Below are positions 8,161 through 34,048 of a stretch of 34,048 nt of DNA, one piece after another. Source of the DNA: Proteromonas lacertae (lineage: Eukaryota); the NCBI GenBank assembly GCA_002245135.1, contig NGBS01001165.1, forward strand, positions 248,001 to 282,048. Direction: 5' to 3'. A program made the position numbers and the translations under genes. Within the stretch, counting starts at the first letter, position 1, and each line of letters starts with the position of its first letter. The notes under the pieces were generated by a model. That model made no database searches. It worked only from the letters and a program-made list of their open reading frames with translations, and was not told the DNA's origin.

Positions 8161-8881
8161 TTAATGTTTTTTCATAAATAGTATTGGAATTAAAATGATT
8201 AATATATTTGATACTACAAGTATTAAAAAAATATTGAACAAACAAAAATTGTATTTGCCAATACACTTACCTGTCCAAGGACAATGGTGATCTAACTATG
8301 AGAGTTATAAAAATAATTAACAAATAGTATACATCTTCAATACATACATCACAATATTCACAATGATATGTATGAGGAGGAATATAAGCGTGACAAATAG
8401 TACATTTCCTTAACGGACGATAGTTATAAAACTTTTGAGCAGCTTCAAATGTGAGATTTGATGGTGCAATTCCAGGATTCGAAAAGATGAGCATAGTATA
8501 TACAGTAACTGTAGCTATTCCAAATGTTGGCACTATAAAATTACCTATTTTGTAGGTTGGATTTGACATTATTACTAACAATGAAAAAAGAATATTTGCA
8601 CCAATTATCATTCCATAGGTTATGATTGTGACATACCAATGTGGTCCAAGAATAAATATCTTTGGCGGAAGATGTTCTTCCAAATTGCCTTTGAATAAAT
8701 AATTACTTCCTAAATAACCACCTATATAAAATAATAAATGCCTTTTTCACATACCAGTCAATGGTTTTTTACAACATTTGAAACAAGACTTTGGTGAATT
8801 GGGTGTTTCATATTGTGCTTCTAATTGATCTTCATTGTTGGGTCTACGCTTTGATGTTAAAAGTTTTGAATTTTCACTCAT
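8161..8881 (-). CDS. DHHC-type palmitoyl acyltransferase-like protein (short C-terminus)
   Basis: ATG 8881; intron 8722-8754 and a second intron just before LDHHCPWTGKCIGKYN; Cys-rich CTIC...HCEYCDVC; stop at 8161-8163. Confidence 0.85.
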
Positions 8882-8970: not shown

Positions 8971-9960
8971 ATGAGTAATAAAAACGATGATTTAAAAACC
9001 CAACTTAGATATACTTACCCATTTGACAAGAGTTATGAGTTAGTTGACCACTCTAAAGACTATTTGAACTTGATTCTAGGTAGAAAACTGGAACAAGCTA
9101 TTGAAGAAGCAGAAAATAAAGAAGAGGAAGAGAATGCACAAAATGAATATAATGATGAGCAGGTTTTGATAGATATTGATGACAGTCAACTCCAATCTGC
9201 AGAACCTGTTGAGACTACCAATGTTTTAGCATTTGATGTTGATTCTGATGATGAGGATAGATTTGGTGATATGGGTTTCTTATATACACCACCAAAGCCG
9301 AAACATACATTATGTTGTCATAAAAGTATATAACTTTTGTTGATTATTATTTATTTTTTGTTATTTATTAGGCGATGTATATGGGTATATGACAAAATTA
9401 TATGGATCAGAAAACAGTCACTATTTCCCATTTGTAATGATAATTGGTCCAGATATAGCCACAATGGCATGCACAATCTGTTCAAATTTGATTGTGAACT
9501 TAGCTTGTTTAATATATACTTATGTTGGCAAAAAATGTTATATTGGAGGTAGTGTTAATTTGGCAATATTTCTTATACATTTATTTTTCTATTTTATGGC
9601 TGCTTTCAGTGACTGTGGTGCAATTCCAAAGAATCTATCATTATTAGAATCAAAAGAAAAATATAGCGAGTTTGGAAGAGTTTTAAAATGTCGTATATAT
9701 ATATATATATAATATAAAATATAAAATAGATCAATGCCATATGTATAGACCAGCAAGAGCATTTCATTGTGAATATTGTAATGTTTGTGTTGATCAAGTA
9801 TATATATATTGAATATATTATATTTTAGATTGATCATCACTGTCCTTTTGTTGGAAAATGTATAGGCAAATATAATTTACCATTTTTCAGAGGTTTTATT
9901 GTCTTTTTATTGGTAAATATATTGTCTGTACTTGTATCTATAGTTGCATGCAGTTTTTGA
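8971..9960 (+). CDS. DHHC-type palmitoyl acyltransferase-like protein (short C-terminus), paralog of the divergent neighbour
   Basis: Spliced ORFs give IIGPD, SDCGAIP, HCEYCNVC and DHHCPFVGKCIGKYN; stop TGA 9958-9960. Confidence 0.85.
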
Positions 9961-14232: not shown

Positions 14233-15742
14233 ATGGATATTAATGACATGAAATTTACACCTCAACAACTATATGGAGGAGGTAAATATAGTTTAGGTAC
14301 AAGAATAGGAAACTGGCAAGAGGATTATGAATTAGCAGCAGTATATTTGATTAATTATAGTATAATAGCAACGTCAAAAAGAATTTGAAATAAGAAAAAT
14401 GAATGGACATTCTGCAGTTGCAGCAAGAGCAGAAAAAGTAAGAGCAGCATTACAACCAGTTCCATTATCATATTCAGAAGATGGATATTTACATTATGGA
14501 TATACAGTAATGTTTGTACACAAACTAGGTAGTCTAGCTGTAAATCTTTGGGAACCAGGTGTTGGAGTGAATGATGTATTGTCTTCTGTAATAGAAAGCA
14601 AGCAGCCAATGTCAAGAAACACATTCATATTAACCAAATTACCATTTGAGAATTACAAAGATGATTTAATTCGTTATGGTGATTGTTTTTGTATACAATC
14701 AGTTCCAGCATTACGAGCAGATCCAATAACAAATGTTACTCGTCCACCATTCTATTTACACTCTGTATTGAAGAGATCAGATAGATTATCAAAATTAGCA
14801 AAAGAGCAGGAAGTATGTATGACTCAAGATGTAGATCAAGATGTAATGTTTAAAGTAATGCCAAGAAATCCAGTGAAGAGAGGTGTAGATGATGGTAAGC
14901 CGGTTGAAGCAAATATTCCAATCGTTTTATATCATGTTCGAAGTTATCAAGCTTTGGCTTGTAATAAACAGTATGATATGGGATCTGATTTTGGAGGAAA
15001 AGAGTATGAAGTATATTGCAAAACAACAACTTCATTTGCAGCAAATGGATCATTAGAAAAAGAAATAAAAGGCTTGAGAGTTGCAAGCCAAACTTCCAAA
15101 GCAGAATTAATTGATAATGTTTGGACGATTGTAACAGCAGAAAAACCAACAGAACATGTAAAAGAATACATTCCAATGGATCCTGAAACCATGTTGAAGA
15201 TGATAAGAAGATCAGCTTACAGTAGAAGTGATCGAGGTGGTAGAGGCTTGTGTCGTGCATTAGAAGTAATGGATGAACATCACAGAGACAGATTACAATT
15301 GGAAGACTTACAATTCGCATTAAGAGATGTAGGAATGAGATTTGAGAGATATGAAGTAGATATATTGATGAATGGATTTAAGCGAGAAGCTGATGGTACA
15401 ATATCGTTGAATGAATTTATTGAAGCGTTAGTTCCTCCAATGCAAGAAAATCGATATAATGTAGTAATGGATATATTCCACATGTTAGATAATGAAAAGA
15501 ACGGCGAACTATGTCTTAAGTTAATTGTGCCATTATATGATGTAAATAGTCATCCAACAATAAGAGAAGCTAAACTAACACAAGATCAAGCATTAGATCA
15601 ATTCATTAATCATTTTCGATATACAATAAAACCTGGATTTATAAGTATGAATGAATTTTTAGATTATTATTTGCTGTTAAGTTCAATGTATGAAAGTGAT
15701 GAAGACTTTGAGACTTTAGTAAGAAGTAATTGGAGAATCTGA
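14233..15742 (+). CDS. CFAP161: CFAP161-like domain fused to calcyphosin-like EF-hand domain (full-length copy)
   Basis: ATG 14233, intron 14341-14368. RIGNWQED, LSYSEDGYLHYG, RNTFIL, IRYGDCFC, GKPVEAN, FGGKEYEV and NVWTIVT match CFAP161 blocks; the C-terminus has EF-hands and a calcyphosin-like ending (EFLDYY...DEDFETLVRSNWRI). Confidence 0.85.
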
Positions 15743-15790
15743 TTATTTCAATAATAAATTTTATATATATTATCATTATTTGTTTGTTGG
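15010..15790 (+). repeat. Direct repeat copy 1: 3' part of the CFAP161-calcyphosin gene plus 3' flank
   Basis: Matches 20648-21428 (offset 5638) with no mismatch seen by eye; 15329-15790 also matches 26788-27249. Confidence 0.95.
15781..15788 (+). terminator. TGTTTGTT motif, candidate downstream polyadenylation element (also 21419-21426, 27240-27247, 30652-30659)
   Basis: Exact TGTTTGTT about 40 nt after the stop codon; this motif is known downstream of poly(A) sites in Blastocystis. Confidence 0.45.
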
Positions 15791-15795
15791 GTATT

Positions 15796-16026
15796 TGCAA
15801 TATTCTTGATTTATATAAGAAATGAATTATACTAAACATTTGCAATGCTTTTGATATATATAAGAAATGAATTATACTGAACATCTGCAATGTTCTTGAT
15901 TTATATAAGAAATGAATTATACTAAACATTTGCAATGCTTTTGATATATATAAGAAATGAATTATACTGAACATCTGCAATGTTCTTGATATATATAAGA
16001 AATGAATTATACTGAACATCTGCAAT
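15796..16026. repeat. 45-bp tandem repeat, 5 copies plus a partial copy, alternating variants
   Basis: Units start at 15796, 15841, 15886, 15931, 15976 and 16021 (TGCAATG(T/C)T(C/T)TTGAT(T/A)TATATAAGAAATGAATTATACT(A/G)AACAT(T/C)). Confidence 0.97.
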
Positions 16027-16051
16027 TCTTCTATTTTCTTATAAAGTTGAT

Positions 16052-19000
16052 ATGACACAGGAAATTGATATAAATTGTCAGATTATAAATTCAGATAATG
16101 AGATTAAAACGTCTGTTGGAGGTATACACTATTACGGGAATGGTTTTTTGATAAAAAGGGAATGCTATTCAAACATTTACGATAAAATGGATAATTACAT
16201 CAGTATAGAGAATGGAATTCAAAAAAATTTCCTAGTTTATGGTAATACAGGCATTGGTAAAACTAGTTTTTGCTTATATTTGTGTAGAGAACTTAAATGT
16301 GAAAGTAATTATCAAATAATATACAGAAGCTCTACCAACACATATTATTACAAAAACGTAGGAGAGGATAGATATTCTGAAGTTGGTAGTCTTCCAGAAA
16401 GACAGGTAGGAATTAATCAAAAATCGATAATAATATGCGATGATTTAATAATTTCAGAAGATGAATATAGTGAAGATGATGTGGTTATACTAGTAAGTGG
16501 TATGAAGTTGGAAAACTATAAAGTTATGCGTAGCAAGAGAGCTCCAATACAGTTCTGCCTTTTACCATTTAGTGATAAAGAAATTGAATTATATGTAGAA
16601 TATATGAATAGTATAGCAATTCCACTTCAACCTAAATATAATAAGTATGGTGGAATTCCTGGATTATTTGTTATGAATGTAAAGGAAGAAATTGAAGAAA
16701 TTGAAAAGATTGATGTTTATGATGGTATTCCTGCCAAATATAATGAATATATCTATATTTATGATGTTGAAAATGAGTTTGAAATTCCTCAGAAATTGAA
16801 ATTCATTTCAAAATATATTGAAGAAAAAGCATTAGAGAAAGTTGTTATTGATAAAAACAATTATAATATTTATCTTACTCTTTTAACAGAAAGAATTGAA
16901 GGAGATAATGAGAAAATAGGTAAAGAAGGTGGATTATATTATGAACCGTTAATATTATATTATAAATCTTGTAATATAAAACACAAAATTAATGAAAAAT
17001 CACAATTGGATGGATTAGATAGAAGCAAATTACCATTATTCATTAATTGTTCATTTCAATCTAATTTTGCATGTGTTGATGCGGTAGTGATAAATGAAAA
17101 ATGTATTAATGGAATACAAGTAACTGTATCTGACCAGCACACTATTAAAGAATATGTAAGTATTTTATTCAATGTGATCTTTCAAAAAACATATGAAAAA
17201 AGAAAAGAACTGATACTTAGAATGTTTGAAAATAGAAAATTAACTAAGATTACTGAGACTCTTTATTATTTAGGAGTATATTAATTATCTATAATATCAA
17301 TATTTATAAATAGTATACACCATCATCGATAATAAATGAAAAATTACAGGTAGAAGTAATCAAGGATAAAGTAAAGAAATATATAGAAGAAGAATCAGTA
17401 TTAAGATTTGGATCAAAATTGCTTATTTCATTAGAATTATTAACAAATCCTAATGAAATAGAAAAGAATAAAAAAGTTAAAGGTATAATAAAAAAGAATA
17501 AAAAAATTGAAGGTATAACAAAAAAGAAAGTAAAGAGATTAATTCTAGATGCAAAAGATTATGCTTATGACTGTTATATTCAGAATGAAATAGATAGAGA
17601 AATACTTTCAAGGGGAAGGACAAATAAAAAACTAAGATGTATGATAAGAAACAATATAATGGATGAAAATAAGAAAGTAATTATAAAGGAAATAAAAAAA
17701 GAAATGAAAAATGTGATTGGAAGTATGACAAAGGATGATTTCAGTAAAAAATATCTTAACAGAAATTATAATCCAAGATTTATAATTACAATGGTAAATC
17801 ATAAAGAGAACGTAAGTATGGATATAGAAGAAGTATTTGACTTCAGCAGTTATGTTGAAGAATTGAAAATAAAAATGTCAAAATATATAGAACAAATTTA
17901 TCCATCATATAATTCATTTAAAGACGCTGAAAAAAAGAGAATAATGACAAATAAATTCTTAAGAGTGGAACAAGCAAATGAAATCATATCATATATTGAT
18001 TTGGAGAGAAATAGAATAAACAATCCAGATTTAAATATTGAAAAGATGTATTATGGAGATGACAAACATGAAATTATGCATTATGATGAAGAAGATTTAA
18101 AAATAACAAAATCTCTAATCAGCAAATTAAGAAGTAACGAGAGAATGAAAAGATTTTTAGATTCAAATTTTATATTTTTAAATCCATCAAATATGATATG
18201 TAGCTCCTATAAGGAAGGTTTAGATAAGTTAGATATGATTTTATGTGGGTATATTTCTCCAACAACGTTTTATACTTCAGATGGACAAAGAAGGAATTAT
18301 TATGATAGTAGCATGAAATTTCCAGTTGAAATACCATGTGTATTGATTGAATTAAAATACCAAGGTGAAAAACAAAATGTAATAGTTAAAGGGAAAAGTA
18401 GAGATGAACTACATCCTAATTTTTTTACATATGATAATTTGTATAGATTAATTTTAAAAGCAAAATGTGTAGGCAATAAAAATGAAGTTTATAATATTAC
18501 AGAAACTTTAACTTGTCCATATTGTAATAATGAAAAAATAATTCGAAGAGAATGTGAATATGTAAATGGTTTTAAAAATAGAAAAACATTCTATTGTTAT
18601 AATTGTAAAATGAAAGTATCATGTATACCTAAATTAGATAATCAAGGTAATACAGAATTGAAATATGTAGAAGGTGGGATTGATATATATGTATATAATA
18701 AACGACAAGAAAAGCTATAAATATGGAACGTTTGCTTTTAATAGTGATGATATTGAAACGGAATTAGAAGATGATGATTATATTCCTCCAGATAGTGATG
18801 AAAATAAAACGGAATTAGAAGATGATGATTATATTCCTCCGGATAGTGAAACTGCAACTAAAAGAAAAATTAACAGTAATGATAAACAGCATCAGTCTAA
18901 GAAGATTAAAAATAATACTTCGCCGAAGAGAAATAGTATATATATATATATATATATTTGAGTATAATATAATAGGTTTTAATTATTTGCAATATATATT

Positions 19001-20534
19001 TAATGAAGATAAGTTCCTTCCTAAGTTTATATATAATGAAACATTGATAGAAATTGATGATAGTTTAGATATATTTCAATATCCTATGCATAAAATATTG
19101 GTGAGAGATTATTACCCACTATTTTGGAAAAGAATAGAATGTAATATTATTCTTAATTGTTTTTATAAGTATAGAGAAGATGAATTTGTTTTAAAGAAAC
19201 TATTGAAATGCATAAATGTTGATGTTGATCCTTTAATTAATGAAGATGATTTACATAAAATCGTTGAAAGAGAGAAAGAAGGATTAAAAAAGACTATTAA
19301 ATATCAACCTGATAGAAATGGCGTTAAAAGTTACTATTTACTGAGAGGTCAACCAGGATGTGGAAAATCCACATTTTTAATTTATTTTATTTTAAAATTT
19401 ATCCAATTGAAGGAAAAAATAGGTATTGATTTAGGTTTAACATATTATAAAAGTTCAAAGAAAGAAGTTGAAAGACCAAGTGGTTTTGTTGCATATAATT
19501 TGGATGGAAGGTATTTAAAAGAAGAAGCTGCTGATCAAGATATAATAATATGTGATTCATATGATATTCATAAAGATATATTTAAAAGAAGTAGTATAAT
19601 TGTAAATGTCAGTTCTCCAGATAATAAAAACTATTCAAATATTATAGATTTTAAACCAGGTAATAAAGTCTATTTCTATTTAGATATTTGCAATAAAAAA
19701 GAGATAGATATATGGAAAGCAAATTGTTTACCTAAAGATTTAGGAAATGCAATTGATGAAGATCTTATTTCTTTATACAATCGAGTACCAAGACATTTAT
19801 ATTTTGCAGCAATATATAAGACATATTATAAAGATAGAAATTATTGGGATGATATTTATACAAATTGTATTAAAACAACTGTGAATAGCCTTGGTTATTT
19901 TGGTTTTATAAAGAAATATCTTTATCCATGTGAAAGAGGTAAAACATCAAACTTGGAAGAGGATAATGGATTAATTGTTAATAGATTAGATACAGATTTG
20001 TCCCATTATGCAGTAAAATACAAAGTATTAGATTATGATTCAATTGATAAATTTCAATTGGAATACATCTCTAACCAAGTATTTAAATTTCTGTATATAT
20101 ACTCAAGTCACACATGCAATAGAAGAGAATCTAATCTTATTAAGGAGTTTTTCTTTAATCAAATAGTATGGAAAAACAATCATCCTCTATATAAACTATT
20201 ATTCAATGAATTATTATGGTATACAATGTTGTATAGTAATAATTGGATTACTTTTGTTAATAAGTTTAATAATATTCGGAAGGATATATTTAATATATAT
20301 TTCAAAAACACTAAAACCTCAATAGGATGTGGAGAAGGTTATTATATTGGTCAATTTATAATTGGTGATGATATTTGTTACATTTTTAATAATGTTGTTG
20401 TATTTCCATTTTCTCATGATATAGATAAAATAATGAATGATAAAGAATTTAAACAGTATTTTGAATGTTATTCAAAAGATATTAACTGTATTGTTAATTA
20501 TAAAGTATTTACAGTTGATGATATAAACTTTTAA
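16052..20534 (+). CDS. Crinkler/RHS-type protein A: P-loop NTPase, REase, second PD-(D/E)xK-like domain, Zn ribbon, second P-loop NTPase
   Basis: Walker A GNTGIGKT and GQPGCGKS; Walker B-like IIICD; SSP and GGIP/RVPR motifs; REase FACVDAV...GIQVTVSDQH; LDMIL...LIELKY; CPYC...CYNC. Introns 17276-17313 and 18936-18975 join ORFs; the junction near 18710 needs a 1-nt indel or an atypical intron. Confidence 0.75.
18741..18849 (+). repeat. 51-bp coding tandem duplication (two TELEDDDYIPPDS-containing units)
   Basis: ATAGTGATGA...GAATTAGAAGATGATGATTATATTCCTCC repeated at 18741 and 18792. Confidence 0.9.
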
Positions 20535-20647
20535 TTATAAAAATTACTATTATTATTATTATTTGAGCTACATCTACTTCATCTGAAATATTAAACTAAA
20601 ACATCTTTCGATTAAAAGGGTTTAATTTTAAAGTAATGGTTAGGTTT

Positions 20648-21620
20648 AGTATATTGCAAAACAACAACTTCATTTGCAGCAAATGGATCATTAGAAAAAG
20701 AAATAAAAGGCTTGAGAGTTGCAAGCCAAACTTCCAAAGCAGAATTAATTGATAATGTTTGGACGATTGTAACAGCAGAAAAACCAACAGAACATGTAAA
20801 AGAATACATTCCAATGGATCCTGAAACCATGTTGAAGATGATAAGAAGATCAGCTTACAGTAGAAGTGATCGAGGTGGTAGAGGCTTGTGTCGTGCATTA
20901 GAAGTAATGGATGAACATCACAGAGACAGATTACAATTGGAAGACTTACAATTCGCATTAAGAGATGTAGGAATGAGATTTGAGAGATATGAAGTAGATA
21001 TATTGATGAATGGATTTAAGCGAGAAGCTGATGGTACAATATCGTTGAATGAATTTATTGAAGCGTTAGTTCCTCCAATGCAAGAAAATCGATATAATGT
21101 AGTAATGGATATATTCCACATGTTAGATAATGAAAAGAACGGCGAACTATGTCTTAAGTTAATTGTGCCATTATATGATGTAAATAGTCATCCAACAATA
21201 AGAGAAGCTAAACTAACACAAGATCAAGCATTAGATCAATTCATTAATCATTTTCGATATACAATAAAACCTGGATTTATAAGTATGAATGAATTTTTAG
21301 ATTATTATTTGCTGTTAAGTTCAATGTATGAAAGTGATGAAGACTTTGAGACTTTAGTAAGAAGTAATTGGAGAATCTGATTATTTCAATAATAAATTTT
21401 ATATATATTATCATTATTTGTTTGTTGGTCATGAAATATTGTATAGTTAGTTTTCTGTTAATCTTTAATTTTCAAAATTTCCATCATTTTTAAGGCTCAT
21501 TGTGATTAATATATTTACTCTTTGTATTACCAGTTATACAGAGAGATTATTGGTATATACTTTCCAAACATCATGAATCTGTGAATGATGTTAATTTTGT
21601 TAAGCAGCACATCAGATGGA
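20648..21620 (+). pseudogene. Direct repeat copy 2: 5'-truncated CFAP161-calcyphosin fragment (ORF to 21380) plus 3' flank
   Basis: 20648-21428 equals 15010-15790; 20967-21620 is nearly identical to 26788-27438. Confidence 0.9.
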
Positions 21621-24600
21621 TGAAATGAAATTGATTACATATAGTTATTGATTAATATTTACTTTATGACATGTATATTACATGTAATTGACAAGTTTAT
21701 AACTATACATTTCATTTGATAATTATAATAATTGAAGAGTATAGTTATTGCATTTTATTTAATCTCATGGATTTCAATTATGTGATAAGGTATTCTGACA
21801 TTAATAAGCTGGAGTTGATGGTAAAAAGTGAAAACAATAAGAAGGTATATTATTTTATGTATCCATCTTCTATTGAAGATCCACTTATTGTTTACTTCAT
21901 TTTGATAAGAGATAGTTATGTTAATATTTATAACTCCATCAAAAATTTAGTAAAAAAGAATGAAGGTGTTGGTAAGAATCGAAGTGAAAGTGAGAATAAA
22001 AGAAGTAGGAATAGTCAGAATTGCTTTTTAGTGTATGGCAATCAAGGTTTAGGAAAATCTACATTATGCTGTTTTTTAGCGTATTTTCTTAATAATGACG
22101 ATGATTTTGATGAATATAGTATAGTAGTATATGGTGTAAATGATTCAAAAGAAACTTATCACTATAGATTAGCAAATACTCATGAATTTCATATAAGATA
22201 TCAAGTTATACCCGAATTAAAAGGCAAAACAATCATTATAAGCGATAATGAACAGATTCATGAAGATGATTTCAGTGATGATAATGTAATAATTATGATC
22301 AGTTCTCCAAAAGCAGAAAAATATAAGATTATGGCAAATAAGAGATGTTGTATCCAATTCTACATTCAACAGTTCAATAAAGAAGAATTAAAGATTATAA
22401 TTAATCAAAAAGAGAAATTAGATGATGATAAGAAAAAGAAAATATTAGATAATGCACTTATATATGGAAACTTTACTGCAGGTTATTCATTTGAAGATAT
22501 GCAAGGATATGTAAAATATTTTAAAGATAAAAAAGAAATGCCATTATTTATTCCACCCTCTTATGAAGAAGAAATATTTGTGTATGATACAAATCAAATT
22601 AATATAATACCTGACACCTTGAGATATTTATCAACAGAAATAGAACAATATATATTAAGTCATTGCTTTTTTGATTTTAATGACTATAAATTATTATATG
22701 AAGTATTAGAAAGTGAATTATTGGATAAAAAAGATCCATGGATATTCGAAAGAATGTGTCACATTATATTCGAAGATAATAGTTATACTACTTATAATAA
22801 ATGTAAAAAAGAATTACCATTTGATTTACCTGAACATACACTAACTTATAGAGAAATGGATAAATTCAATGATTATCTTGATAATGGTGAGAAATATAGG
22901 ATTAGAAACTGTAAAATAAGCAAAGGAACACTTGTAAGTGGTAAAACTACTGATCAAAATAGTACAACTGTAATAGAAGATGGAATATTAGCAGACTGTA
23001 AAATAACAAATGGATATGTGACAAAGGAATATACTAGAATTAAAGATTGTATAATTATGGGATTGAAAACAGTGAAAGATAAGAAAGAAGGTGATAAGAT
23101 TAGTGGTTTAATAGAAGATGGTTTAATATCAGAAGGAGTTATATTTGATGGCATTTATTTGGATTTTGGAAGAATAATTAATTTTCCAGCAATAGATTCA
23201 TGTATTATTAACAAGTATAGTATTAACTGGAGTTACAAATGACAATTTCTAACAATCATCCAACTAAGAATACTGTAATAGCATTTCTAAATGTATATTA
23301 TTATTATTATTATTATTGTATAGATGTTATATAGCTATCATAAATCATATATAATCGATAATTTGAAAAGACTAAATAAATATATGAGTAATAATGAATA
23401 CAACAAAGATATTCTTGCAAATGCGTTATATGATAATGGATATATCCCAAAGAATAAAAAGAGAGAGATAATAAATAGTATGGATAAAGAAAAGAGAATA
23501 ATGTGTGAGAGTTATGTATGATATTAATATTTATATATTATTTATATAGTTTTTAATCAATGAACTTCATCATAGGGGATATAAAAACATATATGACGAA
23601 AAGTTTATAAAAAGATATTTAAATAAAAGAGATAGTGATGCATTAACTTATAATACATTATTATTGTATAGATCTATAATAAAGAATGAATCTCTATCAA
23701 GTGAAGAATTAACTAGTGAGGATGATTATAATTGTTATAGATCAAAAGATATTAATAATTCAACCTTGAAAAGAGGTAGAAGTAGAAGTCAAAGTTTATA
23801 TTCTATTAAAGTTAAAAAAATAAAACTTAATAATTATATAGACAATGAAGATAAAAGAAATAATACTGAAAAATTGATAAAAGAAATTGAAGGCATAGAT
23901 ATAGATGAACTAAAAAATAAGAATGATGAAGTTAAAGCTGCTATAAAAGATAAGCAAATATTACATGACTTAGATGATTATTTGATTGATGTAGTATACC
24001 ATGATAAGAAAAATAATAAAGAAAAAAAAGAAATGAAGAATGATATTATTGCTGTATATATATTATTGTATTATTATTATAGTCAATTAAAGAAGAAATC
24101 AATTCAGGTATTGATAATGAAGATATTATTAATCAATTGAATAAATGTAATCCAATATTTAATATTGTGTTTATTACATACAATCGAAATGAAGTAACAT
24201 CATCACTTGAAGAAGGTGAAACTGATTTTGGACATTATGGAATATTTAAAGATAAAATAATAGAAGAAATGAAGAAAACTTACAAATGGGATGAAATGAA
24301 ATCAACTGGTAAAGAAAATGAAATAACTTCTGCTGTTGGTACAGGAAAAGAAAATAATAAATCCAAAAAATTAATAATGTCAATAAAATCGAAAAGATTA
24401 AGATTTTCAACCTATAATATGAATTCTGATGAATTGAATGATTATTTAATACATCAAAAAAATGTGGAAACATTACATTTGTATTTTGATGAAAAGAAAA
24501 ATTCCATAGATTTAGAAGTCACAGGATATACAAACCCATCAGTAAATATTATACATCATGGAATTGAAGAAAAAAAGATAGATTGTGATTATAGAATATG

Positions 24601-26787
24601 TGAAAAGATTATAAATAAACTAATCGATAATGAAAAGGCGAATGAAATCTCAAAAGCTGTTTGTGATGTTGTTATTGATGAAAAAAACACAATCATTGAA
24701 GAATGGAAAAAACTAAACGAGAGTTTAATATTTGATGAAAAGAATGTAGCAATAAAATTATTGAATAACAGTATAGTATCAAATGAAATAAAAATATTAA
24801 AAATAATGTTTAATATAATAGAAAAAAATATAGAAAATTATAGTAAAAATCGTACAAGTATATATATATATATATTAATTATATCAATAATAGGTACTAA
24901 CTCTTTATGTAAAGTATTTGGAGATTCAACTCCACAATACAATGAGAAAGCTGAAACAATAAAAATTAATTGCGATATATACCAATATCCAAATAATCAA
25001 GTTTATATTAGAGATGTTTACAAGGTTATATGTGATGAATTAATCAGTCATATTTTAAGTTTTAAACTAAAGAATATAGAGGAAAATAATGTAGAGAGTC
25101 TCAAAAAAATTTGTCATGAATTGGGTTATAAAAATGTTACAGATGAAAAAGCAAAAGAAATTCGTGACGAGGTGATGAAGAATACCCTTTATGATAGAGA
25201 TTTAAGAATTTTATTAAGAGGTAATCCAGGTTGTGGTAAAACTTCATTTGTTATCTATCTTCTATGTAGAATCATAGAATTAAATGAGAATATTGATGTT
25301 GGAATCAAAGCAACTGTTCTTAAAGCATCTGTGATTAAATCAATAGATAATAAACCAATTTCTGATCAGTACAATTTAAAAGGTAAAAAAATGGATTATG
25401 ATGTAGATAAAGAAATAACATTTTCTGATATTGTGATATGCGATTCTTATGATATTCAAGCTACAGATTGTAAAGGTAATATTTATTTATATGTCACTTC
25501 ACCAGATTATAAAAATTATGCAAATTTTTCAAAAAGTACTGATGATGATCATAGAAAATATTATTTTATGGATGTATTTAGTAAAGATGAAATTGAAAAA
25601 TGGGAAGAAAATTGTTTACCAGATGATTTAAAAAAGTAGCAAAAAGGTTTAATAGTAGATATGGAAATATTCCAAGACATATCTATTATGCTTCAATATA
25701 TGATGTTTGTTATGGTGAAGATTATTGGGATAAATTATATTCAAAAGGTATAAAAAGAATCGTTGGTAAACTTGGTTATATGAAATTTTTAAGGACATAT
25801 ATATATCCCTGTGAATCAAATGAAAAGGAAGATAAAATATCCAATAGAACAACAACATTTGATAGTACATTATGTCATTATATAGTGAAGTATTCTATTC
25901 CCTATGTAGATGAAGAGAATAAAATCAAATATTATGATAGAATTAATGAACATGAGATGGAATTCATATCAGATGAAGTATTCGATTATATTTATGATTG
26001 TGTTAAACACAAAGCTGTAGAAGATGATGTTAAGAATATGCAGGAACAATTTAAAATAGTTTATGAGGAAGGTAATACTTCCCAATTATTTAGGTTATTA
26101 TTTCAAGAATTAGTTTGGTATAACTGTTTATATCATGGTAATAAGATAACTCTTGATGATAGTGTATTAGTTGAAGAGATTGAAAATAATATATTAGAAG
26201 TATTTATGAATCTGTTTGATGGTGATATCTATTGTAGTAATGATAATAAATACTGTTTAGTTCATTTAGCAACATTGAAGAATAGAGAAATGATTTACTT
26301 ATTGAATAACTGTTTTATTCATGTAATAAATGATCAACGAGAAATATTGGATTGTGATGATCAAATAAAAGAATGTATATGTGGTTTGCAACAAATGGTG
26401 AATTTTAAAAGAATGTATTATATTACAGTATCCAATGATAAATCACCTGGATCGTCACCTAAAAAATCACCGTGTATATCAAAAGTATTAGTTTCACATT
26501 ATAAAGGCGATAAAACCAAAAGAGATGCAAAAATTACATATTGTAAATCTATATTTGGAGATTCAGTGTATGGAAATAATTTCAATGTACAAACAAACAT
26601 GTAGAGGCAAATCAACAGAATTAGGTAATAAATGTGGTATGAGTGAAAATTTTGAAGAAAAAGATGATGATGAAGAGGAGAATAACAAAATGACAGATAT
26701 ATATTCTTCATCTTTTTCATTGCAACAACAACATTCACAACCATCTATTCCTTATACTGCAAGTAATATGAAAGAAGAAGATATGAA
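21621..26787 (+). mobile_element. Putative Crinkler/RHS-like inserted cassette B between about 650-bp direct repeats (left boundary may instead be 21429)
   Basis: Unique block bounded by direct repeat copies 2 and 3; contains one NTPase-nuclease gene. Mobility is inferred. Confidence 0.55.
21767..26604 (+). CDS. Crinkler/RHS-type protein B (two P-loop NTPases plus REase), diverged paralog of protein A; frameshifted as assembled; may extend to 26791
   Basis: Walker A GNQGLGKS and GNPGCGKT; SSP and GNIPR motifs; NFPAIDS...QMTISNNH. Introns 23293-23323, 23516-23549, 24054-24082 and 24858-24893; frameshifts near 23225-23235 and 25630-25635. Confidence 0.7.
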
Positions 26788-27438
26788 GTAGGAATGAGAT
26801 TTGAGAGATATGAAGTAGATATATTGATGAATGGATTTAAGCGAGAAGCTGATGGTACAATATCGTTGAATGAATTTATTGAAGCGTTAGTTCCTCCAAT
26901 GCAAGAAAATCGTTATAATGTAGTAATGGATATATTCCACATGTTAGATAATGAAAAGAACGGCGAACTATGTCTTAAGTTAATTGTGCCATTATATGAT
27001 GTAAATAGTCATCCGACAATAAGAGAAGCTAAACTAACACAAGATCAAGCATTAGATCAATTCATTAATCATTTTCGATATACAATAAAACCTGGATTTA
27101 TAAGTATGAATGAATTTTTAGATTATTATTTGCTGTTAAGTTCAATGTATGAAAGTGATGAAGACTTTGAGACTTTAGTAAGAAGTAATTGGAGAATCTG
27201 ATTATTTCAATAATAAATTTTATATATATTATCATTATTTGTTTGTTGGTCATGAAATATTGTATAGTTAGTTTTCTGTTAATCATTTTTCAAAATTTCC
27301 ATCATTTTTAAGGCTCATTGTGATTAATATATTTACTCTTTGTATTACCAGTTATACAGAGAGATTATTGGTTTATACTTTCCAAACATCATGAATCTGT
27401 GAATGATGTTAATTTTGTTAAGCAGCACATCAGATGGA
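26788..27438 (+). pseudogene. Direct repeat copy 3: shorter calcyphosin EF-hand fragment (ORF 26794-27201) plus 3' flank
   Basis: Matches 20967-21620 except two synonymous changes (CGA>CGT, CCA>CCG), one flank SNP and a net 3-nt indel near 27285. Confidence 0.9.
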
Positions 27439-27475
27439 ATATATGTATAACCGTAAGAATATCACTGTAGGTGGG

Positions 27476-27558
27476 TAACCCGTACCAGACTATTCTTAGG
27501 TGCCTTCTACAGGTAAGAATAAGCGATTTGAGTGTAAATTAGTTTTTGGTACGGGTTA
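27476..27558. repeat. Nested inverted repeat (12-bp outer stem, 8-bp inner stem)
   Basis: TAACCCGTACCA 27476-27487 pairs with TGGTACGGGTTA 27547-27558; TATTCTTA 27491-27498 pairs with TAAGAATA 27514-27521. Confidence 0.85.
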
Positions 27559-27702
27559 TACTGGAGCAAGTGGTGAGTTTAAATTTCTTTATATATTTTA
27601 GTGTATGAGTAATTTTATGGGTTAAAATTTTTCTTTTGTTTTTTGTATATAATTTCATTTAACTTTTTCTTATTGTTTTTTATCAATCATAATTTCAAAA
27701 GA

Positions 27703-28044
27703 ATGTCAAGAATTTGGATCGAGAATGTTAATATAGAAGATAGAAATAAGCGTGAAGATGAAGACTTTGAAAGAATCTATGCAATCATTGAAAGTGAAGT
27801 AGCTAGAATAGTAGCTGAGCCACCTCCAGTAGTAATGTGGTATACTTCTGATACAGCTGATGAGGATGACAGAAAGTATGAAGAATGGCGTGCAATTCAT
27901 AAACCAACCAGAGTAGCACAAGCAACCATACGCCCTAGAAAATGGGTTGATCCTGAAGAAGAGCGCAGAAAAACAAAGATGTTAAAGCGTTATGGTATTG
28001 ATGAAAAAAACATCATTGAAGAAAGACTAAGATTTCATAACTAA
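27703..28044 (+). CDS. Hypothetical charged protein (element ORF)
   Basis: Intronless ORF from ATG 27703 (MSRIWIEN), coding-like composition, no recognisable motif. Confidence 0.55.
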   Translation: MSRIWIENVNIEDRNKREDEDFERIYAIIESEVARIVAEPPPVVMWYTSDTADEDDRKYEEWRAIHKPTRVAQATIRPRKWVDPEEERRKTKMLKRYGIDEKNIIEERLRFHN

Positions 28045-28172
28045 TTCTTAAATCATTGGTTTTAATTGAATTTTTGTTATTTGATTGGCTGAATAGAAAT
28101 AAACATAATATTACATAATTCTTTTCATTCATAAATTTCTTGCGATTTTTGAAATAATCTACATAAATTAAA

Positions 28173-28757
28173 ATGAGTGATATACAAAACGAATTAGATG
28201 CTAATATTGAAAAACACTTACAAGAAGGTGAAATGTATGAGAATGATATGTCTGAAGTAAAATCATTAATTATTAAAGTATTCAAGGATATGTTGGATGG
28301 TATGTATTCTGTGATTGAAGAGTATGAAGATGATCCAGAATGGAGTGAACAACCAGGTGATGATATTGATATAACAATGGAAGAAGAAGAAGTGAAGGAA
28401 GAAAAACAAAGTGAATCTAAATCTAAAAAAAGAAAGGATATAACAAAGTCAGATTCAGATTCACAAGTGTGTAGTACTTGTGGTAAGAAGAAAGCTAATG
28501 ATGAATTTGGTTATAAGAGTGAAGGTGTATTCTATAAATCTTGTACAGAGTGTAGAAATAAGAAGAAGAGAAGATATGAAGAAGTAAAGAAAGGAAGTGA
28601 TAATAGTGGAGAAGATAAGAAGCGTAAAGTAGAGAATAGTTCCACTGCCGAGGGTCGACCAAAGGTAGATATTGCTAAAGTAGATTGTTCTACAAGTCCT
28701 ATCCCGGGGGTAGCTACAGTAGATCTAACTACATCACCTACCTGTATAATTAATTAA
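28173..28757 (+). CDS. C4 zinc-finger protein (element ORF)
   Basis: CSTCGKKKANDEF...CTECRNKKKRR, a CxxC...K...F...CxxC ribbon common in viral and phage proteins; NLS-like basic runs. Confidence 0.65.
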   Translation: MSDIQNELDANIEKHLQEGEMYENDMSEVKSLIIKVFKDMLDGMYSVIEEYEDDPEWSEQPGDDIDITMEEEEVKEEKQSESKSKKRKDITKSDSDSQVCSTCGKKKANDEFGYKSEGVFYKSCTECRNKKKRRYEEVKKGSDNSGEDKKRKVENSSTAEGRPKVDIAKVDCSTSPIPGVATVDLTTSPTCIIN

Positions 28758-28821
28758 CTTTTGGTTTAAAATTCATTTTTATATTTCTATACGTTTTTAT
28801 ATATAAATAATTTCACATAAT

Positions 28822-29205
28822 ATGCCATATAATTCATCTTTAGTTATGTTAGGTGATATGAAAGATACTTTAAATGGTTTGAAACAAGAACTGTATATTT
28901 TATTAGGTTGTGTAGTTCTATGGGTTCTTTATAAATGCAAGAGAATATGTGCATGGTGTTATCATAAAGCCTGTCCTCCAGAATTAAGTGAAATATTAGC
29001 TGAGCCAGAACCTGCTGTTCAATTAGCATTAAGAAAATCTACTATTGTTTCTGCTATTCCATTTACTTTAACACCTGAAAATAGTAGAATAAATTCTAGA
29101 AATGCTAGTGATAATGAAGATGAAGAGCAATTAGAAACAGAAATAGAAATTATTCCTATTAATAAACCTGAGATTGAAATTCAAAAACCAATCATAAATA
29201 TTTAA
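28822..29205 (+). CDS. Small single-pass membrane protein (element ORF)
   Basis: Hydrophobic LYILLGCVVLWVLY followed by a Cys/basic juxtamembrane segment. Confidence 0.55.
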   Translation: MPYNSSLVMLGDMKDTLNGLKQELYILLGCVVLWVLYKCKRICAWCYHKACPPELSEILAEPEPAVQLALRKSTIVSAIPFTLTPENSRINSRNASDNEDEEQLETEIEIIPINKPEIEIQKPIINI

Positions 29206-29386
29206 TTTTATATATAGTCTTTTTTCGTATTTGATTTTTGAAAGTTATTTTTTGTACCCCCTTAAATATTACATAAAGAAAAACCGTTTTATTTTTCATT
29301 CACACTTTTCTTACTCATTTTCAGTATTTTATTTTTTTCATTTTTTACTTTAATAGAAAATTAATTATTCAATCATTCAATCAAAA

Positions 29387-30559
29387 ATGCCAGCAGACAG
29401 AGTCAAACAACCAACCAATTCAGAATTATGCTCCCAGCTTCCATTAAAGGGACAGGCTTATGAGTTCTATCAGAAAGTGAGTCGTAACATCCAGCATTTA
29501 AAGACATTTTGCGACGAAATGTATATTCAAAGTTTGGCTTATGATGACAGCAAAAAATCAAAGAAGAAGCAAAGTCCACCACAATTCAACTATATCGAAT
29601 TAGAGAAGTCAGCTACAGCAGTTTATTATTGCTTTTCATGTAAGTTTGATAATCAGAAGTTAATTCCCATTAAACATCTAGAGACATTAGATCAAAATGA
29701 GTATATGAATTTATACTTTAGTGACGAAGAGATGAAGAGTATAGTAAAACCAGATGTAAAACAGATTAAACCTTTTATTCAACCTCAGTTAAAACAACAA
29801 CAACAACCACAACAAGAACCACCACCACCAACTGTACCTCAAAAACCTAAAAGAGTTTATAAAAGAAGAACTGATACTGTAAAGAAACCTAAAACAAAAG
29901 CAGTTATTGATAGTGATGATGAATTAATTCATTTAAAGAAAAGAAAGATTGTTAAGGATTCTGATTTTGTTGACGAACCAGTGGGTATAATTGTGAAAGA
30001 TACTGAATCAAGAACATCTGCTGATGATTTATTAAGTAGCCAAAGTCCTACCTTTACACCTCCAATGTCACCAAGGTCTGATACTACACTTCTTGATGTT
30101 ACTGATATTGATATACTGGATGCTGAATTGAAATATTTTAATGCTGAAATAACTAAAAAAGATGAAGAAAAACAAAAAGAGATAGAAGAGAAAATTAAGC
30201 ATCAAGATGCAGAGAGAAAGAAACAAGAAGATGAAGAAAAAAAGAAAAAACAACAAGAAGAAGAAAGAGTTAGAAAAGTACAAGAAGAAGCAGAGAGAAA
30301 GAGAAAACAAGAAGAAGCAGAAAAGAAAAGAAAAGAAGAATTAGTGGTTATTAGAATGCTTCAAGAAGAAGAGAATATGAGACAACAAGAAGAGTTAAGA
30401 AAGAAATGGGTATTAGAACAAAAGAGACAAATGGAAGAAAAGATGAAAAAAGAAAACGATGAATTAGAAAAGAAGATGGAAGAAGAGTTTAAGAAAAGAA
30501 TTGAAGAAGAGAAAAGAAAGAAAGCTGAAGAGTTTGAGAAGATGATGAAGAACTTATAA
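29387..30559 (+). CDS. Hypothetical protein with long E/K/R-rich C-terminal helix or coiled coil (element ORF)
   Basis: 390-aa intronless ORF with a P/Q-rich linker and charged C-terminus. Confidence 0.7.
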   Translation: MPADRVKQPTNSELCSQLPLKGQAYEFYQKVSRNIQHLKTFCDEMYIQSLAYDDSKKSKKKQSPPQFNYIELEKSATAVYYCFSCKFDNQKLIPIKHLETLDQNEYMNLYFSDEEMKSIVKPDVKQIKPFIQPQLKQQQQPQQEPPPPTVPQKPKRVYKRRTDTVKKPKTKAVIDSDDELIHLKKRKIVKDSDFVDEPVGIIVKDTESRTSADDLLSSQSPTFTPPMSPRSDTTLLDVTDIDILDAELKYFNAEITKKDEEKQKEIEEKIKHQDAERKKQEDEEKKKKQQEEERVRKVQEEAERKRKQEEAEKKRKEELVVIRMLQEEENMRQQEELRKKWVLEQKRQMEEKMKKENDELEKKMEEEFKKRIEEEKRKKAEEFEKMMKNL

Positions 30560-30698
30560 GTATTAATATATACTTTAAATTTGTCTGGTTTATGCTTTAA
30601 TCCATATACTTGAAAAAAGCACTTTGAATTCATTACTTTGATGAAAATTGGTGTTTGTTTTATATGTAAAAAATAACATAAATAAAAAACATAAAAAA

Positions 30699-31860
30699 TT
30701 ATACGAAATCATTAAATAGCGAATTTTTCTTATATACTCTACCATATCTACTTTTTCTGCCTTCTGGTACTGGTTGAATATCTGGTTCTATAGGTTGTGC
30801 TTCATTATTTATACTATGAATTTGTCTTAATCTAAACTTACCATTTGTTGTAATACTATTAACTGGTACTCTTTTTATTTCATGAGATTTGAATCTATAT
30901 GAGCCTATATCTCTAGGATTGAATTCTCTAGGTATTGTTCCATCCAAGTTCTTAACAGAATATGAAAATGGTCCAACTTTGTGTATTTGGTATACTTTAT
31001 CAGTATAATAAGTAGTTTTTTGAAGTTTGTTATCTCTACGTTCTTTTATTCTGACAAAATCATCAGCTTTAAAATGAGTATCACTTTTACGCTTCTTTAA
31101 GTTTCTAGCATGGGATTCTTTTATACAATCTATCTTGGACTTCAAAATCATTGAATACTTCATTTGGAGTTAGATTATTGAGTGCAGAATGTGGTTTTGC
31201 ATTGTAATCATCTACAACAGTATATACTATATTACACAATGATTCAATATTGTTAATTTTATCAAATTCTTCATCAGAAAATGTATTAATTTTTCTATAA
31301 AACATATCTTTAATAGTTCTCCACACATCGATCCAATATTTTCATTATATTATGTTCATTACGTTCTTTAAGTATAAATCGTATATGATTTTTGTTAAAC
31401 AAATCTAAAAATTTCTTACCATAGATAATACCAGACTCTTCATCTGACAATATACTTCCTACAAAACGAGCGTTTTCATCCTTAGGTTGCATACCCTGAT
31501 AAACCATTTTTCAAACACTGGATATACATCATTTTCTGATTTAGATTTAACATAATATATCCAACACTTACGACTAACAACTTCTATAATTAACAAAAAT
31601 GGAACTTTTGTATTGTTGAAAAACACCAAATCTATTTGATATGACCCAGGTAACTTTTCAATTTCATATTTAATTCTATTCCTTTTAGTTGCAGTGATTT
31701 GATAATCTGGTTTAGACTCTACAAGTTCACTACTAGCTTTTTTAATGTCAGATTTTTTAAAGTTATTCTCAAGTTCATTTACAGAGAAATTAATAAAGTC
31801 TCGTTTGTTTAAATAACCATATGTTTTGTATAACTCATTTATTTTATCTTGTAGTGACAT
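30699..31860 (-). CDS. Retroviral-like (c-int/rve) integrase of Maverick/Polinton type; three frameshifts as assembled
   Basis: Joined ORFs give YQIDL, IEVVSRKCW, SDEESG, ILDRCVRTIK, YNAKPHSALNNLTP and FKADDFVRI; shifts near 31502, 31321 and 31120. Confidence 0.9.
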
Positions 31861-31920
31861 TCAAACAATATATAAAAAAATATGAATGATATATTTTAAA
31901 GAATTAATGAATTAAAATAA

Positions 31921-32694
31921 TTAAATCATTTCTTCTACCTCTCCCAAATCCTTATCACTTAAAGCGTTACCAAAGTTAATAGACTTAGCAGCACTAATAA
32001 AACCATTACTAATTACTTTCTTAGCAGGGAATGGTCTACGAGTACTAATTAAATCACTATCTTCTATCTTAGTTCTCTTAATTCTTGGAGGTGAAACAAA
32101 TTTGTTTTGATTAGCTTGTTCTTTCTTAATTTTCTTCTCATTACTTCTTCTAATAGTTGTAGCTAAATCAGGATTTTCATCATAACCAACAATATCACTA
32201 CAAACTCTATGATTAACAAAGTTTTGAGTACCATTACTCTTAATAGAGATTTGATTATCAACAACACTTACAGCAATTTTACTACCAACATCAACATCAG
32301 ATGGAACTCTATAGTTACTATTATCCCATATCATAATAGAATTGAAATTGTGGAAGTATTTAATACCATGTTGAGGTTCTCTACATCCTACACTAATCAA
32401 ATATCCACGAATGATTTTTTCTATAAAGTCATTCTCGTTTCTATCATAAATTTGTTTCAATACATATTTCACTTCATCAGCTGAATATGTTTCAAAATCT
32501 CTTCCATTATTAATTACAACTTTATGATCCAAATCATGAACAAAAGTAATCAATACATATTGACTAGTTTTAGTAGGCTTAACTGTAATACTCTCAACAG
32601 TTCCTTTAATAATCCACTTGTTACATAACTTTGGATTCTTGTAGTAATCACTGAATTCTACATCTGTAGCTTCATAGGGTGTTTCGTTACTCAT
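31921..32694 (-). CDS. Putative OB-fold single-stranded nucleic-acid-binding protein (element ORF)
   Basis: Intact 257-aa ORF; IIKGTVESITVKPTKTSQYVLITF and SIMIWD...VDVGSKIAV resemble OB-fold strands. The fold is an inference. Confidence 0.45.
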   Translation of the reverse strand: MSNETPYEATDVEFSDYYKNPKLCNKWIIKGTVESITVKPTKTSQYVLITFVHDLDHKVVINNGRDFETYSADEVKYVLKQIYDRNENDFIEKIIRGYLISVGCREPQHGIKYFHNFNSIMIWDNSNYRVPSDVDVGSKIAVSVVDNQISIKSNGTQNFVNHRVCSDIVGYDENPDLATTIRRSNEKKIKKEQANQNKFVSPPRIKRTKIEDSDLISTRRPFPAKKVISNGFISAAKSINFGNALSDKDLGEVEEMI

Positions 32695-32779
32695 TTTATA
32701 TAAGGGAGAGATGAAAATAAAAAATGATTAAAAAATGTCAAGAAAAATGAAAATGAAAATTTCTTTTTATTTTTAAAGT

Positions 32780-32840
32780 CGACCAATCAAATCATCCGAC
32801 CAATCAAATTTCATATTTCATTTTTGATTTATTTCGCGAA
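32780..32840. promoter_or_regulatory. Divergent promoter region with tandem CCAAT boxes and a TTCGCGAA palindrome
   Basis: CGACCAATCAAAT at 32780-32792 and 32797-32809; TTTCGCGAA at 32832-32840; lies between divergent ATGs at 32694 and 32855. Confidence 0.5.
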
Positions 32841-32854
32841 TTCTGTCTATATAT

Positions 32855-33070
32855 ATGAGCAAACATAAAAAGCTTTTAAAAGCATTTTTTAAACTTCTAG
32901 AACAAACTTTTAATAAAAATAAACATCATAAGCATAAGCATCACCATCATCATAAACATAAACATACAGATGAACTACCACCAGAAGAAGCTCCAAAACG
33001 AAGATTAGCGCCATTATTTAGTACAGATGCTATTCAAAATAAAAAAGATATAATAATGATATACCAATAA
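32855..33070 (+). CDS. Small His/Lys-rich basic protein (element ORF)
   Basis: 71-aa ORF containing KHHKHKHHHHHKHKH. Confidence 0.45.
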   Translation: MSKHKKLLKAFFKLLEQTFNKNKHHKHKHHHHHKHKHTDELPPEEAPKRRLAPLFSTDAIQNKKDIIMIYQ

Positions 33071-33096
33071 TCAGTGATACATTCTTTGGTGGATTA

Positions 33097-34048
33097 ATGC
33101 CTTCTTCCCTACCAAAACCTAACCAAAATCAAAGATTTAATGATAGAATACGTGATGCTAGAGAAGTTGATAAATCATCTCAAGGTGTTACCAGGAAATG
33201 GGTTTTCAATTATAACAATAGAAATTACAGTACACCACAACAATGTTATCATGATTTTGTTAATAATAGTGATATCAAAGATATATTACATGAACTAGCT
33301 GATACTATGAATATGATCAAATTTTTCTTTATTGTACGTTCAATTTATATACCTGATGAGTCTACTGACAGTGATGATGAAGTTTCTATATTTAGTCGTA
33401 GTAGACTATGTGAAATAACAAAATGTCTACTGTAGGTGAAATACAAACTATACTGGAGAATATATTTACACAAATATCAGAAGATGATTCAAATCATCCT
33501 CAAAGTGGTCTTACTTTTGCTAGAGTAAATACTATAGAATTATATGTAACAAAATTTAAAGTGATACGTGGAAGTAGTTTTATTGTTTTACCTGCTAAAC
33601 TTCAAGGTCTTAGATGTTTAACAAATGTAATAAATGAAGATAATGAATGCTTTAAGTGGAGTGTACTATGCTCTTTTATATTCTAATAATCTACAATGTA
33701 ATAAAGATAAACCTGAAAAATACAAAATGTATGAAAAGAAACATGATTGGAGTATGTTAACATTCCCTGTTGATGCTACAGACAATGAATTATTGATAAG
33801 TTTGAAACAAAGAATCGACTAAATGTGAATATATTTTATATTGATATTGCTAAAGATAAAGAAGAAATATTCTTACCCATTCATTTATCTAAACAAAAGA
33901 AATCTAAAAAATATAGTGTTGTAAATCTATTGCTAATAAAAATGAAGATGGAAATTCACACTATGTAACAATAAATACCTTACCTGCTCTATTTAGAAAA
34001 ATGATAGATAAAAAGAATAATACTAATAATATATTTGTGTGTCCATAT
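33097..34048 (+). CDS. N-terminal region of Polinton-type protein-primed DNA polymerase B; partial; frameshifted as assembled
   Basis: SGLTFARVNTIELYV...GSSFIVLP...NVINEDNECFKWSVL, FPVD...KFETKN, NLLLI...HYVTI motifs typical of Polinton pPolB N-termini; the catalytic domain is not in the window; four 1-nt shifts. Confidence 0.7.

Follow-up and report, generated by a model that had tools for sequence, protein, structure and literature searches.

We analysed a 34,048-nt window of contig NGBS01001165.1 from Proteromonas lacertae (coordinates throughout are positions in this window) and identified two cassettes, A and B, each with a single long gene of Crinkler/RHS (CR)-like type, lying between near-identical copies of the 3′ part of a host gene. 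The structure is real and odd, and the evidence supports separate DNA-level insertions of A and B rather than tandem duplication of one unit. Tentatively, and somewhat short of calling it probable, we read the array as two separate DNA insertions with long target duplication, in which the target would have been cut by the cassette's own nuclease and the ends joined by host break repair.

Self-comparison of the window found copy 1 of the host segment identical to copy 2 at 781 of 781 bp (Table 1). A second pair, 20964-21620 and 26785-27438, is 98.8 % identical (blastn), with an exact repeat onset at 20967/26788 and lengths of 654 and 651 bp. Copy 3 differs from 20967-21620 by four events, namely substitutions at 26913, 27015 and 27373 and a complex 3-bp indel near 27285, and its interval is shifted relative to copy 2, with an onset 319 bp later in the host gene and an end 192 bp further 3′. 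Division of the host sequence into X1 (15010-15328), X2 (15329-15790) and X3 (192 bp, present only in copies 2 and 3) gives the order X1 X2 [A] X1 X2 X3 [B] X2′ X3′, the array that two separate insertions yield if A duplicated X1X2 and B duplicated X2X3. An earlier sequence-only reading of this DNA had listed the same succession (host 3′ end, A, 781-bp copy, B, a copy of about 650 bp) and the base-level comparison agrees with it.

The predicted proteins of A and B are whole-length collinear homologues. With X placed at the frame breaks they align at 24.6 % identity over 1493 columns (blastp, E 9e-93), with individual segments at 28-39 % over 176-279 aa, so that the earlier description of the two as alignable in motifs only does not hold. 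The accompanying remark that most intron positions differ was correct for the predicted introns, one in five positions being common to both, the phase-1 intron before the second nucleoside triphosphatase (NTPase) domain. Collinearity, a shared orientation and one common intron would all be in keeping with an ancient tandem duplication of cassette plus host gene end, the host part being kept identical by gene conversion, but we consider this highly improbable: proteins that are 25 % identical stand beside DNA at 99-100 %, the breakpoints lie 319 and 192 bp apart and no decayed homology is seen past them, and the frame breaks of B match its flank divergence. Neither X1 against the right end of B (p = 0.68/0.35) nor X3 against the left end of A (p = 0.60/0.27) retains any homology past the repeat edges, and this speaks against an old tandem unit homogenised by conversion.

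The flank differences, 0/781 for A and 4/654 for B (Fisher p = 0.043), indicate that B is the older insertion, in agreement with its broken frame. A looks recent, while B looks to have come first and decayed. The sequence-only reading had proposed recent insertions, which fits A with its unchanged flanks but not B with two frame breaks and diverged flanks; its argument that simple tandem duplication is insufficient gains from these unequal ages together with the differing breakpoints and the absence of homology beyond the repeats. Neither of the substitutions in the coding part of copy 3 changes an amino acid, an outcome with p ~0.10 if the copy were dead. Synonymous-only differences would be expected if copy 3 came from the homologue, either through real inter-homologue repair or through chimeric assembly. 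An assembly artefact, whether an extrachromosomal circle of cassette plus host fragment threaded in as a loop or two one-insert haplotypes joined, would account for the complete identity of copies 1 and 2, as a collapsed loop would give, and for the allelic look of the coding differences in copy 3. We nevertheless judge it unlikely, as the four host-cassette junctions are non-homologous and must stem from some molecule, a haplotype switch explaining all four differences must fall in the last 65 bp of X3, and the host genes are free of frameshifts.

The host protein has Pfam matches to CFAP161-like and EF-hand families (E 2e-12 and 3e-11), and splicing of the single 28-nt intron (14341-14368) leaves an open 493-aa frame. 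Both repeats (781 and 654 bp) contain the host stop and the gene is left whole, with 48 bp retained between the stop and the start of A. None of the three host genes checked (~3.5 kb coding) needs a frameshift. A TGTTTGTT motif lies at 15781-15788, 2 bp before the left junction of A, and recurs in copies 2 and 3; should it act as a 3′-end signal, the cassettes, the tails of which lack TGTTTGTT, could borrow that of the host. The candidate 3′-end motif has 10 exact sites, three of which are the repeat copies, with no clear gene-end pattern, and a guess at lineage drawn from it was dropped.

The plus-strand genes of A and B have the same order of NTPase, nuclease-like motif, linker of ~550 aa and second NTPase. 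Their Walker A motifs read GNTGIGKT (A) and GNQGLGKS (B) in NTPase1, and GQPGCGKS and GNPGCGKT in NTPase2. The nuclease-like motif D..Q.T...H..K follows the Walker A/B NTPase in A and is split by a frame break in B. Gene A has one frame break, near 18690, which may be a short intron or a frameshift, while gene B has two, near 23225 (within the nuclease motif) and near 25635. Decay is a likelier cause of these breaks than base errors, since the host genes need no frameshift and at least seven frame changes lie to the right of 27438; the contrast between B and the host genes alone is too small for significance. The cassettes keep introns, as had been proposed, in the form of predicted introns of 29-40 nt that are similar to those of the host (two in A, four in B). 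GC content at third codon positions lies at 0.14-0.18 for the cassettes and at 0.17-0.18 for two host genes, with a third host gene disregarded because its row was out of frame; these values suggest a family that is long resident or came from a similar genome. Two differences between the genes were observed in passing: B holds an insert of ~100 aa at 22750-23150, ahead of the nuclease motif, that is missing from A and the closest homologues, and the CxxC..CxxC ribbon and a 51-bp tandem repeat (18741-18849) are found in A and not in B.

Pfam scans of the cassette open reading frames (ORFs) gave no match to a reverse transcriptase (RT), no methyltransferase, no Rep or helicase family above cut-off and no DDE transposase, in a protein the linker of which has no homologue or usable model. 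A hidden catalytic domain in the linker is possible. The claim that the cassettes encode neither RT nor DDE transposase stands at the level of Pfam matches and, for the transposase, is provisional in view of a 459-aa linker without assignable fold or homologue. Within 14000-34048 there was no Rfam match at E 0.1. Searches of PDB sequences gave no match, and those of PADLOC and PHROGs gave weak matches only.

The CR-like identity of the first module, as named in the sequence-only reading, is upheld by feature scores, profile comparison and motif conservation. Atlas feature scores were 0.98 for a CRN cluster (RHSP in 13 % of members), 0.93 for RHS and 0.91 for Crinkler. An exhaustive phmmer search with the first exon of A returned 19 homologues at E ≤ 0.001, eight of them at ≤ 1e-10, and the motif F/M-P-x-x-D ... 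Q/K-x-T ... H/D-x-x-K is kept in all eight closest. All 10 of the 19 that were looked up are unnamed and lie on Logan contigs of 1.5-4.8 kb. The eight closest homologues end just past the motif, which suggests read-through into an intron at the position of the first intron of B. Four of the 10 clusters looked up hold near-identical members (90-99.8 %), which may be recent copies or only strains. The family profile matched five more distant hits at E 4.8e-15 (hhalign), with the nuclease motif included in the alignment, and a second hhalign comparison gave E 1.9e-10; two of the five carry a sub-threshold RHSP Pfam match. Neither A nor B has a direct Pfam match to RHSP or Crinkler, or to a header domain, the NTPase module starting ~30-45 aa after the initial Met, and on their predicted sequences A and B are best classed as header-less CR-like proteins, not CRN effectors. 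In a homologue of 1041 aa (P0012) the order of the two NTPase types is reversed, suggesting that modules have been shuffled within the family.

Structure prediction recovered the P-loop core as the only fold. The NTPase1-nuclease model has a predicted local distance difference test (pLDDT) value of 52, with the nuclease part below 60, and at that quality Foldseek searches of PDB and viral libraries found nothing at E 0.001. The best fold match (VIA) was Clp1 (Z 9.7, root-mean-square deviation 3.2, 141 aligned, residues 24-173 only), and Clp1/Grc3 kinases were the best matches overall. Such generic P-loop matches lend no support to the suggestion that the NTPase translocates. The linker model reached pLDDT 32 and a best Atlas score of 0.78, and a word-indexed search found linker homologues in 0 of 7996 candidates. 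Among longer proteins NTPase1 homologues were found in 0 of 6700 candidates by word-indexed search and 3 of 7996 with a profile. Viral contigs gave no confirmed family locus, and exact look-up of three window ORFs gave no match. Of the metagenome pattern matches, 0 of 255 were confirmed with the close-family alignment and 5 of 144 with distant CR-like proteins, one of the five aligning to A beyond the P-loop. On one contig (L005:4663-5113) a distant CR-like gene is followed by an array of ~41-bp repeats that loosely resembles the 45-bp array of A.

No terminal inverted repeats (TIRs) were found at the ends of the cassettes, end-to-end identity being 14/40 and 13/40, and the best shifted 20-mers matched at 15/20 and 11/20, where random AT-rich pairs reach at least 15 in 7/300 and 23/300 draws. 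Homopolymer tails, poly(A) or poly(T), are missing from all junctions, and the earlier statement that the cassettes lack TIRs and poly(A) tails is confirmed on both counts. The non-coding margins measure 261 and 113 bp in A, and 146 bp (left) and either 183 bp or none (right) in B, where an acidic reading frame stays open as far as a stop created at the junction. At the left of A the first repeat unit opens with 10 nt that recur, inverted, at the start of X1 (p = 0.04), and at the right of B the last 9 nt (13 across the junction) are found again just inside X2 (p = 0.02). Two of the four ends of the inserts thus have a word in common with host DNA no more than 35 bp from the breakpoint, a post hoc and modest result. 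On account of the words shared at these two ends, joining by repair seems to us somewhat likelier than clean strand transfer. Two further short motifs were observed at the junctions: the right end of A looks telomere-like (GGTTAGGTTT, one short word), and TGG precedes both right breakpoints, seen post hoc.

Repair-type joining also suits a passive capture, in which host replication repair template-switched genes of this family into an unstable site and re-replicated 650-780 bp, the Polinton-like neighbour possibly supplying the breaks. The short shared words at two junctions, the lack of common termini, the right end of B in coding-like sequence and the position of the left junction of B, where Polinton-like DNA begins after copy 3, all accord with it. 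Cycles that re-replicate a host segment are described as a repair product (PMC7025897), and in Arabidopsis genes other than transposons are reported to have moved with repeats of up to 550 bp at their flanks (PMC2869330). We consider passive capture somewhat unlikely because both inserts (2/2) are nearly complete genes of one kind, share an orientation and have margins of at most 261 bp, and because no such gene occurs in the first 15 kb of ordinary host genes, so that the family is not dense here. Captured random fragments would rarely be tightly gene-bounded twice.

Mobilisation in trans by a Dualen-like LINE (long interspersed nuclear element) would have an unspliced or antisense transcript reverse-transcribed at the target, the two endonucleases of the LINE giving the long duplication. 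The duplications reported for Dualen-4b_cRei have a median of 900 bp (PMC9977147), an antisense RNA truncated at its 5′ end could explain the variable right ends, and the left end of A has tandem repeats. This course is improbable given that the cassette ORFs scanned hold no RT, the junctions have no poly(A) or poly(T), the predicted introns are kept, there is no LINE in the window and B has no tandem tail.

Under the reading of two insertions driven by the cassettes, two cuts 650-780 bp apart would be made, staggered on one duplex or placed on two sister chromatids or homologues. Microhomology-type repair would then attach the left end of the cassette at the downstream cut and the right end at the upstream one, and with the ends joined crosswise the intervening interval would be present twice. 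Inserts that spare the host stop and 3′ end would survive selection. We infer cutting by the cassette itself from two of two tightly bounded genes of one nuclease-motif family and from bacterial precedent. The Campbell-style integration of a circle put forward in the sequence-only reading would presuppose the same non-homologous junctions and hence offers no explanation of them. A stronger version, which we regard as possible but rather doubtful, is that A and B belong to an autonomous class of eukaryotic DNA element so far undescribed, with a Crinkler/RHS-type NTPase-nuclease-NTPase as its sole mobilising enzyme, each insertion copying 650-780 bp of target while leaving the host gene whole and borrowing the 3′ end of that gene.

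Several observations weigh against insertion driven by the cassettes. The evidence consists of two inserts at one locus, with no empty site, donor copy or second locus, and the repair-type junctions are equally consistent with passive capture. A and B have no common terminal sequence, their left ends comparing at p = 0.02 locally and p = 0.34 globally and their right ends at p = 0.10/0.04 and not at homologous positions. The lysine of the canonical (D/E)xK motif is replaced by Q.T, with a conserved K further along, which leaves the nuclease a predicted one. None of the five distant CR-like metagenome loci (0/5, short-read contigs of 1.1-5.8 kb) has a long flanking direct repeat. The synonymous-only differences of copy 3 hint at a second haplotype and hence also at a chimera. 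Lastly, if the left end of the Polinton-like region is at 27439 it coincides with the left junction of B, and that element may have made the break.

The closest precedent is the insertion of restriction-modification genes, in which the target duplications are long and variable, often take in a start or stop codon and are attributed to double-strand breaks in the report (PMC2853133). As described there, such insertions likewise involve a gene with a nuclease motif, no recognised transposase, long variable target repeats and an intact target gene, while the present case is eukaryotic, intron-bearing and free of a methyltransferase, with repeats of 654-781 bp compared with ~45-420 bp. The cassettes resemble this class of insertion but, with no methyltransferase in their ORFs, are not a restriction-modification system. 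Dualen-4b_cRei of Chlamydomonas is similar in its duplications of hundreds of bases, but is presented as an RT element with APE and RLE endonucleases (PMC9977147), whereas A and B have no RT or tail and keep predicted introns. Templated-insertion cycles (PMC7025897) and transposed genes of Arabidopsis (PMC2869330) are comparable in placing a DNA-level insert between copies of a host segment with no need for an element enzyme; their inserts are arbitrary or diverse, whereas A and B are nearly whole members of one nuclease-motif family at one site. The sequence-only reading went too far in proposing a new mode of mobility, as long duplications have been published for restriction-modification genes, Dualen and templated-insertion cycles. 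The TIRs and short fixed target site duplications (TSDs) of TIR/DDE transposons are absent from A and B. Helitrons characteristically have a RepHel protein and no target duplication, and A and B differ from them in their long duplications.

Descent of Crinkler/RHS proteins from mobile elements has been widely proposed. NTPase and restriction endonuclease (REase) modules of CR proteins have been linked to mobile elements and transposons (PMC5289972, PMC11342252). A and B share with the CR NTPase+REase proteins described in these sources a P-loop NTPase followed by a restriction-endonuclease-type motif, and differ in having no N-terminal header, a second NTPase after a long linker, and long host duplications. 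CR-related genes that behave selfishly in non-pathogens are described for Medea1 of Tribolium and AACRNL of fish (PMC11342252; PMC12957317), the Crinkler-like AACRNL spreading inside hAT and mariner elements (PMC12957317). In these accounts (PMC11342252; PMC12957317) Medea1 and AACRNL are carried by Tc1, hAT or mariner transposons with TIRs, whereas no such carrier surrounds A and B. In the literature searched, from which subscription journals were largely excluded, long target duplications around CR/RHS genes were not described; in the literature reached such genes move only as cargo of other transposons and none has an insertion footprint of its own. Separate DNA insertion of A and B would be rare evidence that an effector-related family can still move. 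Zhang et al. 2016 reportedly asked of CR proteins whether such genes are still transposons. If the insertions were self-driven, the bacterial type of insertion with long target duplication would extend to eukaryotes, and annotation based on TIRs, long terminal repeats and short TSDs would miss such elements. If the autonomous class is true, A and B would be living mobile relatives of Crinkler/RHS effectors; if capture was passive, the array is an unusual but explainable repair scar.

Table 1 Features of the cassette array and its surroundings in the 34,048-nt window
Feature	Position	Strand	Remarks
Host gene	14233-15742	+	CFAP161-like + EF-hand protein, 493 aa, intact (Pfam)
Copy 1	15010-15790	+	Host gene 3′ part + 48 bp past stop; left duplication of A
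Cassette A	15791-20647	+	4857 bp
Tandem repeats at left of A	15793-16030	+	~5 tandem 45-bp repeats, from 2 bp inside the left junction
Predicted gene A	16052-20534	+	~1460 aa
Gene A, NTPase1 and nuclease-like motif	16052-17275	+	
Gene A, predicted introns	17276-17313; 18936-18975		
Gene A, linker	17314-18935	+	CxxC..CxxC ribbon and 51-bp repeat
Gene A, NTPase2	18976-20534	+	
Copy 2	20648-21428	+	Right duplication of A, 100 % identical to copy 1
Left duplication of B	20967-21620	+	Overlaps copy 2, adds X3 (21429-21620)
Cassette B	21621-26787	+	5167 bp
Left non-coding end of B	21621-21766	+	Three copies of TATAGTTAT 9-mer (one inverted); imperfect hairpin (z -2.4)
Predicted gene B	21767-26604	+	~1570 aa, domain order as in A
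Gene B, predicted introns	23293-23323; 23516-23549; 24054-24082; 24858-24893		
Copy 3	26788-27438	+	Right duplication of B (651 bp); differs from 20967-21620 by 4 events
Decayed Polinton-like region	27439-34048		
Integrase-like gene	31860-30702	-	Four frame pieces; rve E 0.02, below cut-off
PolB-like gene	33043-34048		Five pieces

To the right of copy 3 the window holds intronless ORFs with at least seven frame changes, which we read as a decayed Polinton-like element. The pieces from 33043 we take to be PolB-like on the strength of their motifs. No close relative of the region was found in viral contigs. The left boundary of the region may lie at 27439, within X3 or to the right of 27439. In X3 (21429-21620) GC content climbs from 0.22 to 0.31, and the initial 40 bases are weakly like the left end of B (p 0.055); host intergenic sequence, a piece of a neighbouring gene and the terminus of another element are all possible origins of X3. 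A hairpin with 12-bp arms (z -2.5) lies at ~27476-27558. The TSDs of Polintons are reported as ordinary (PMC12220804).

Two further observations concern the ordinary host genes to the left of the array. An intronless fused MsrA-MsrB gene (Pfam PMSR + SelR) was identified at 7152-8123; the fused arrangement is known from bacteria, and lateral transfer is possible. A divergent pair of DHHC-like genes contains an inverted 125-bp match at 74 % (8246-8370 and 9760-9878) and is probably an old inverted duplication.

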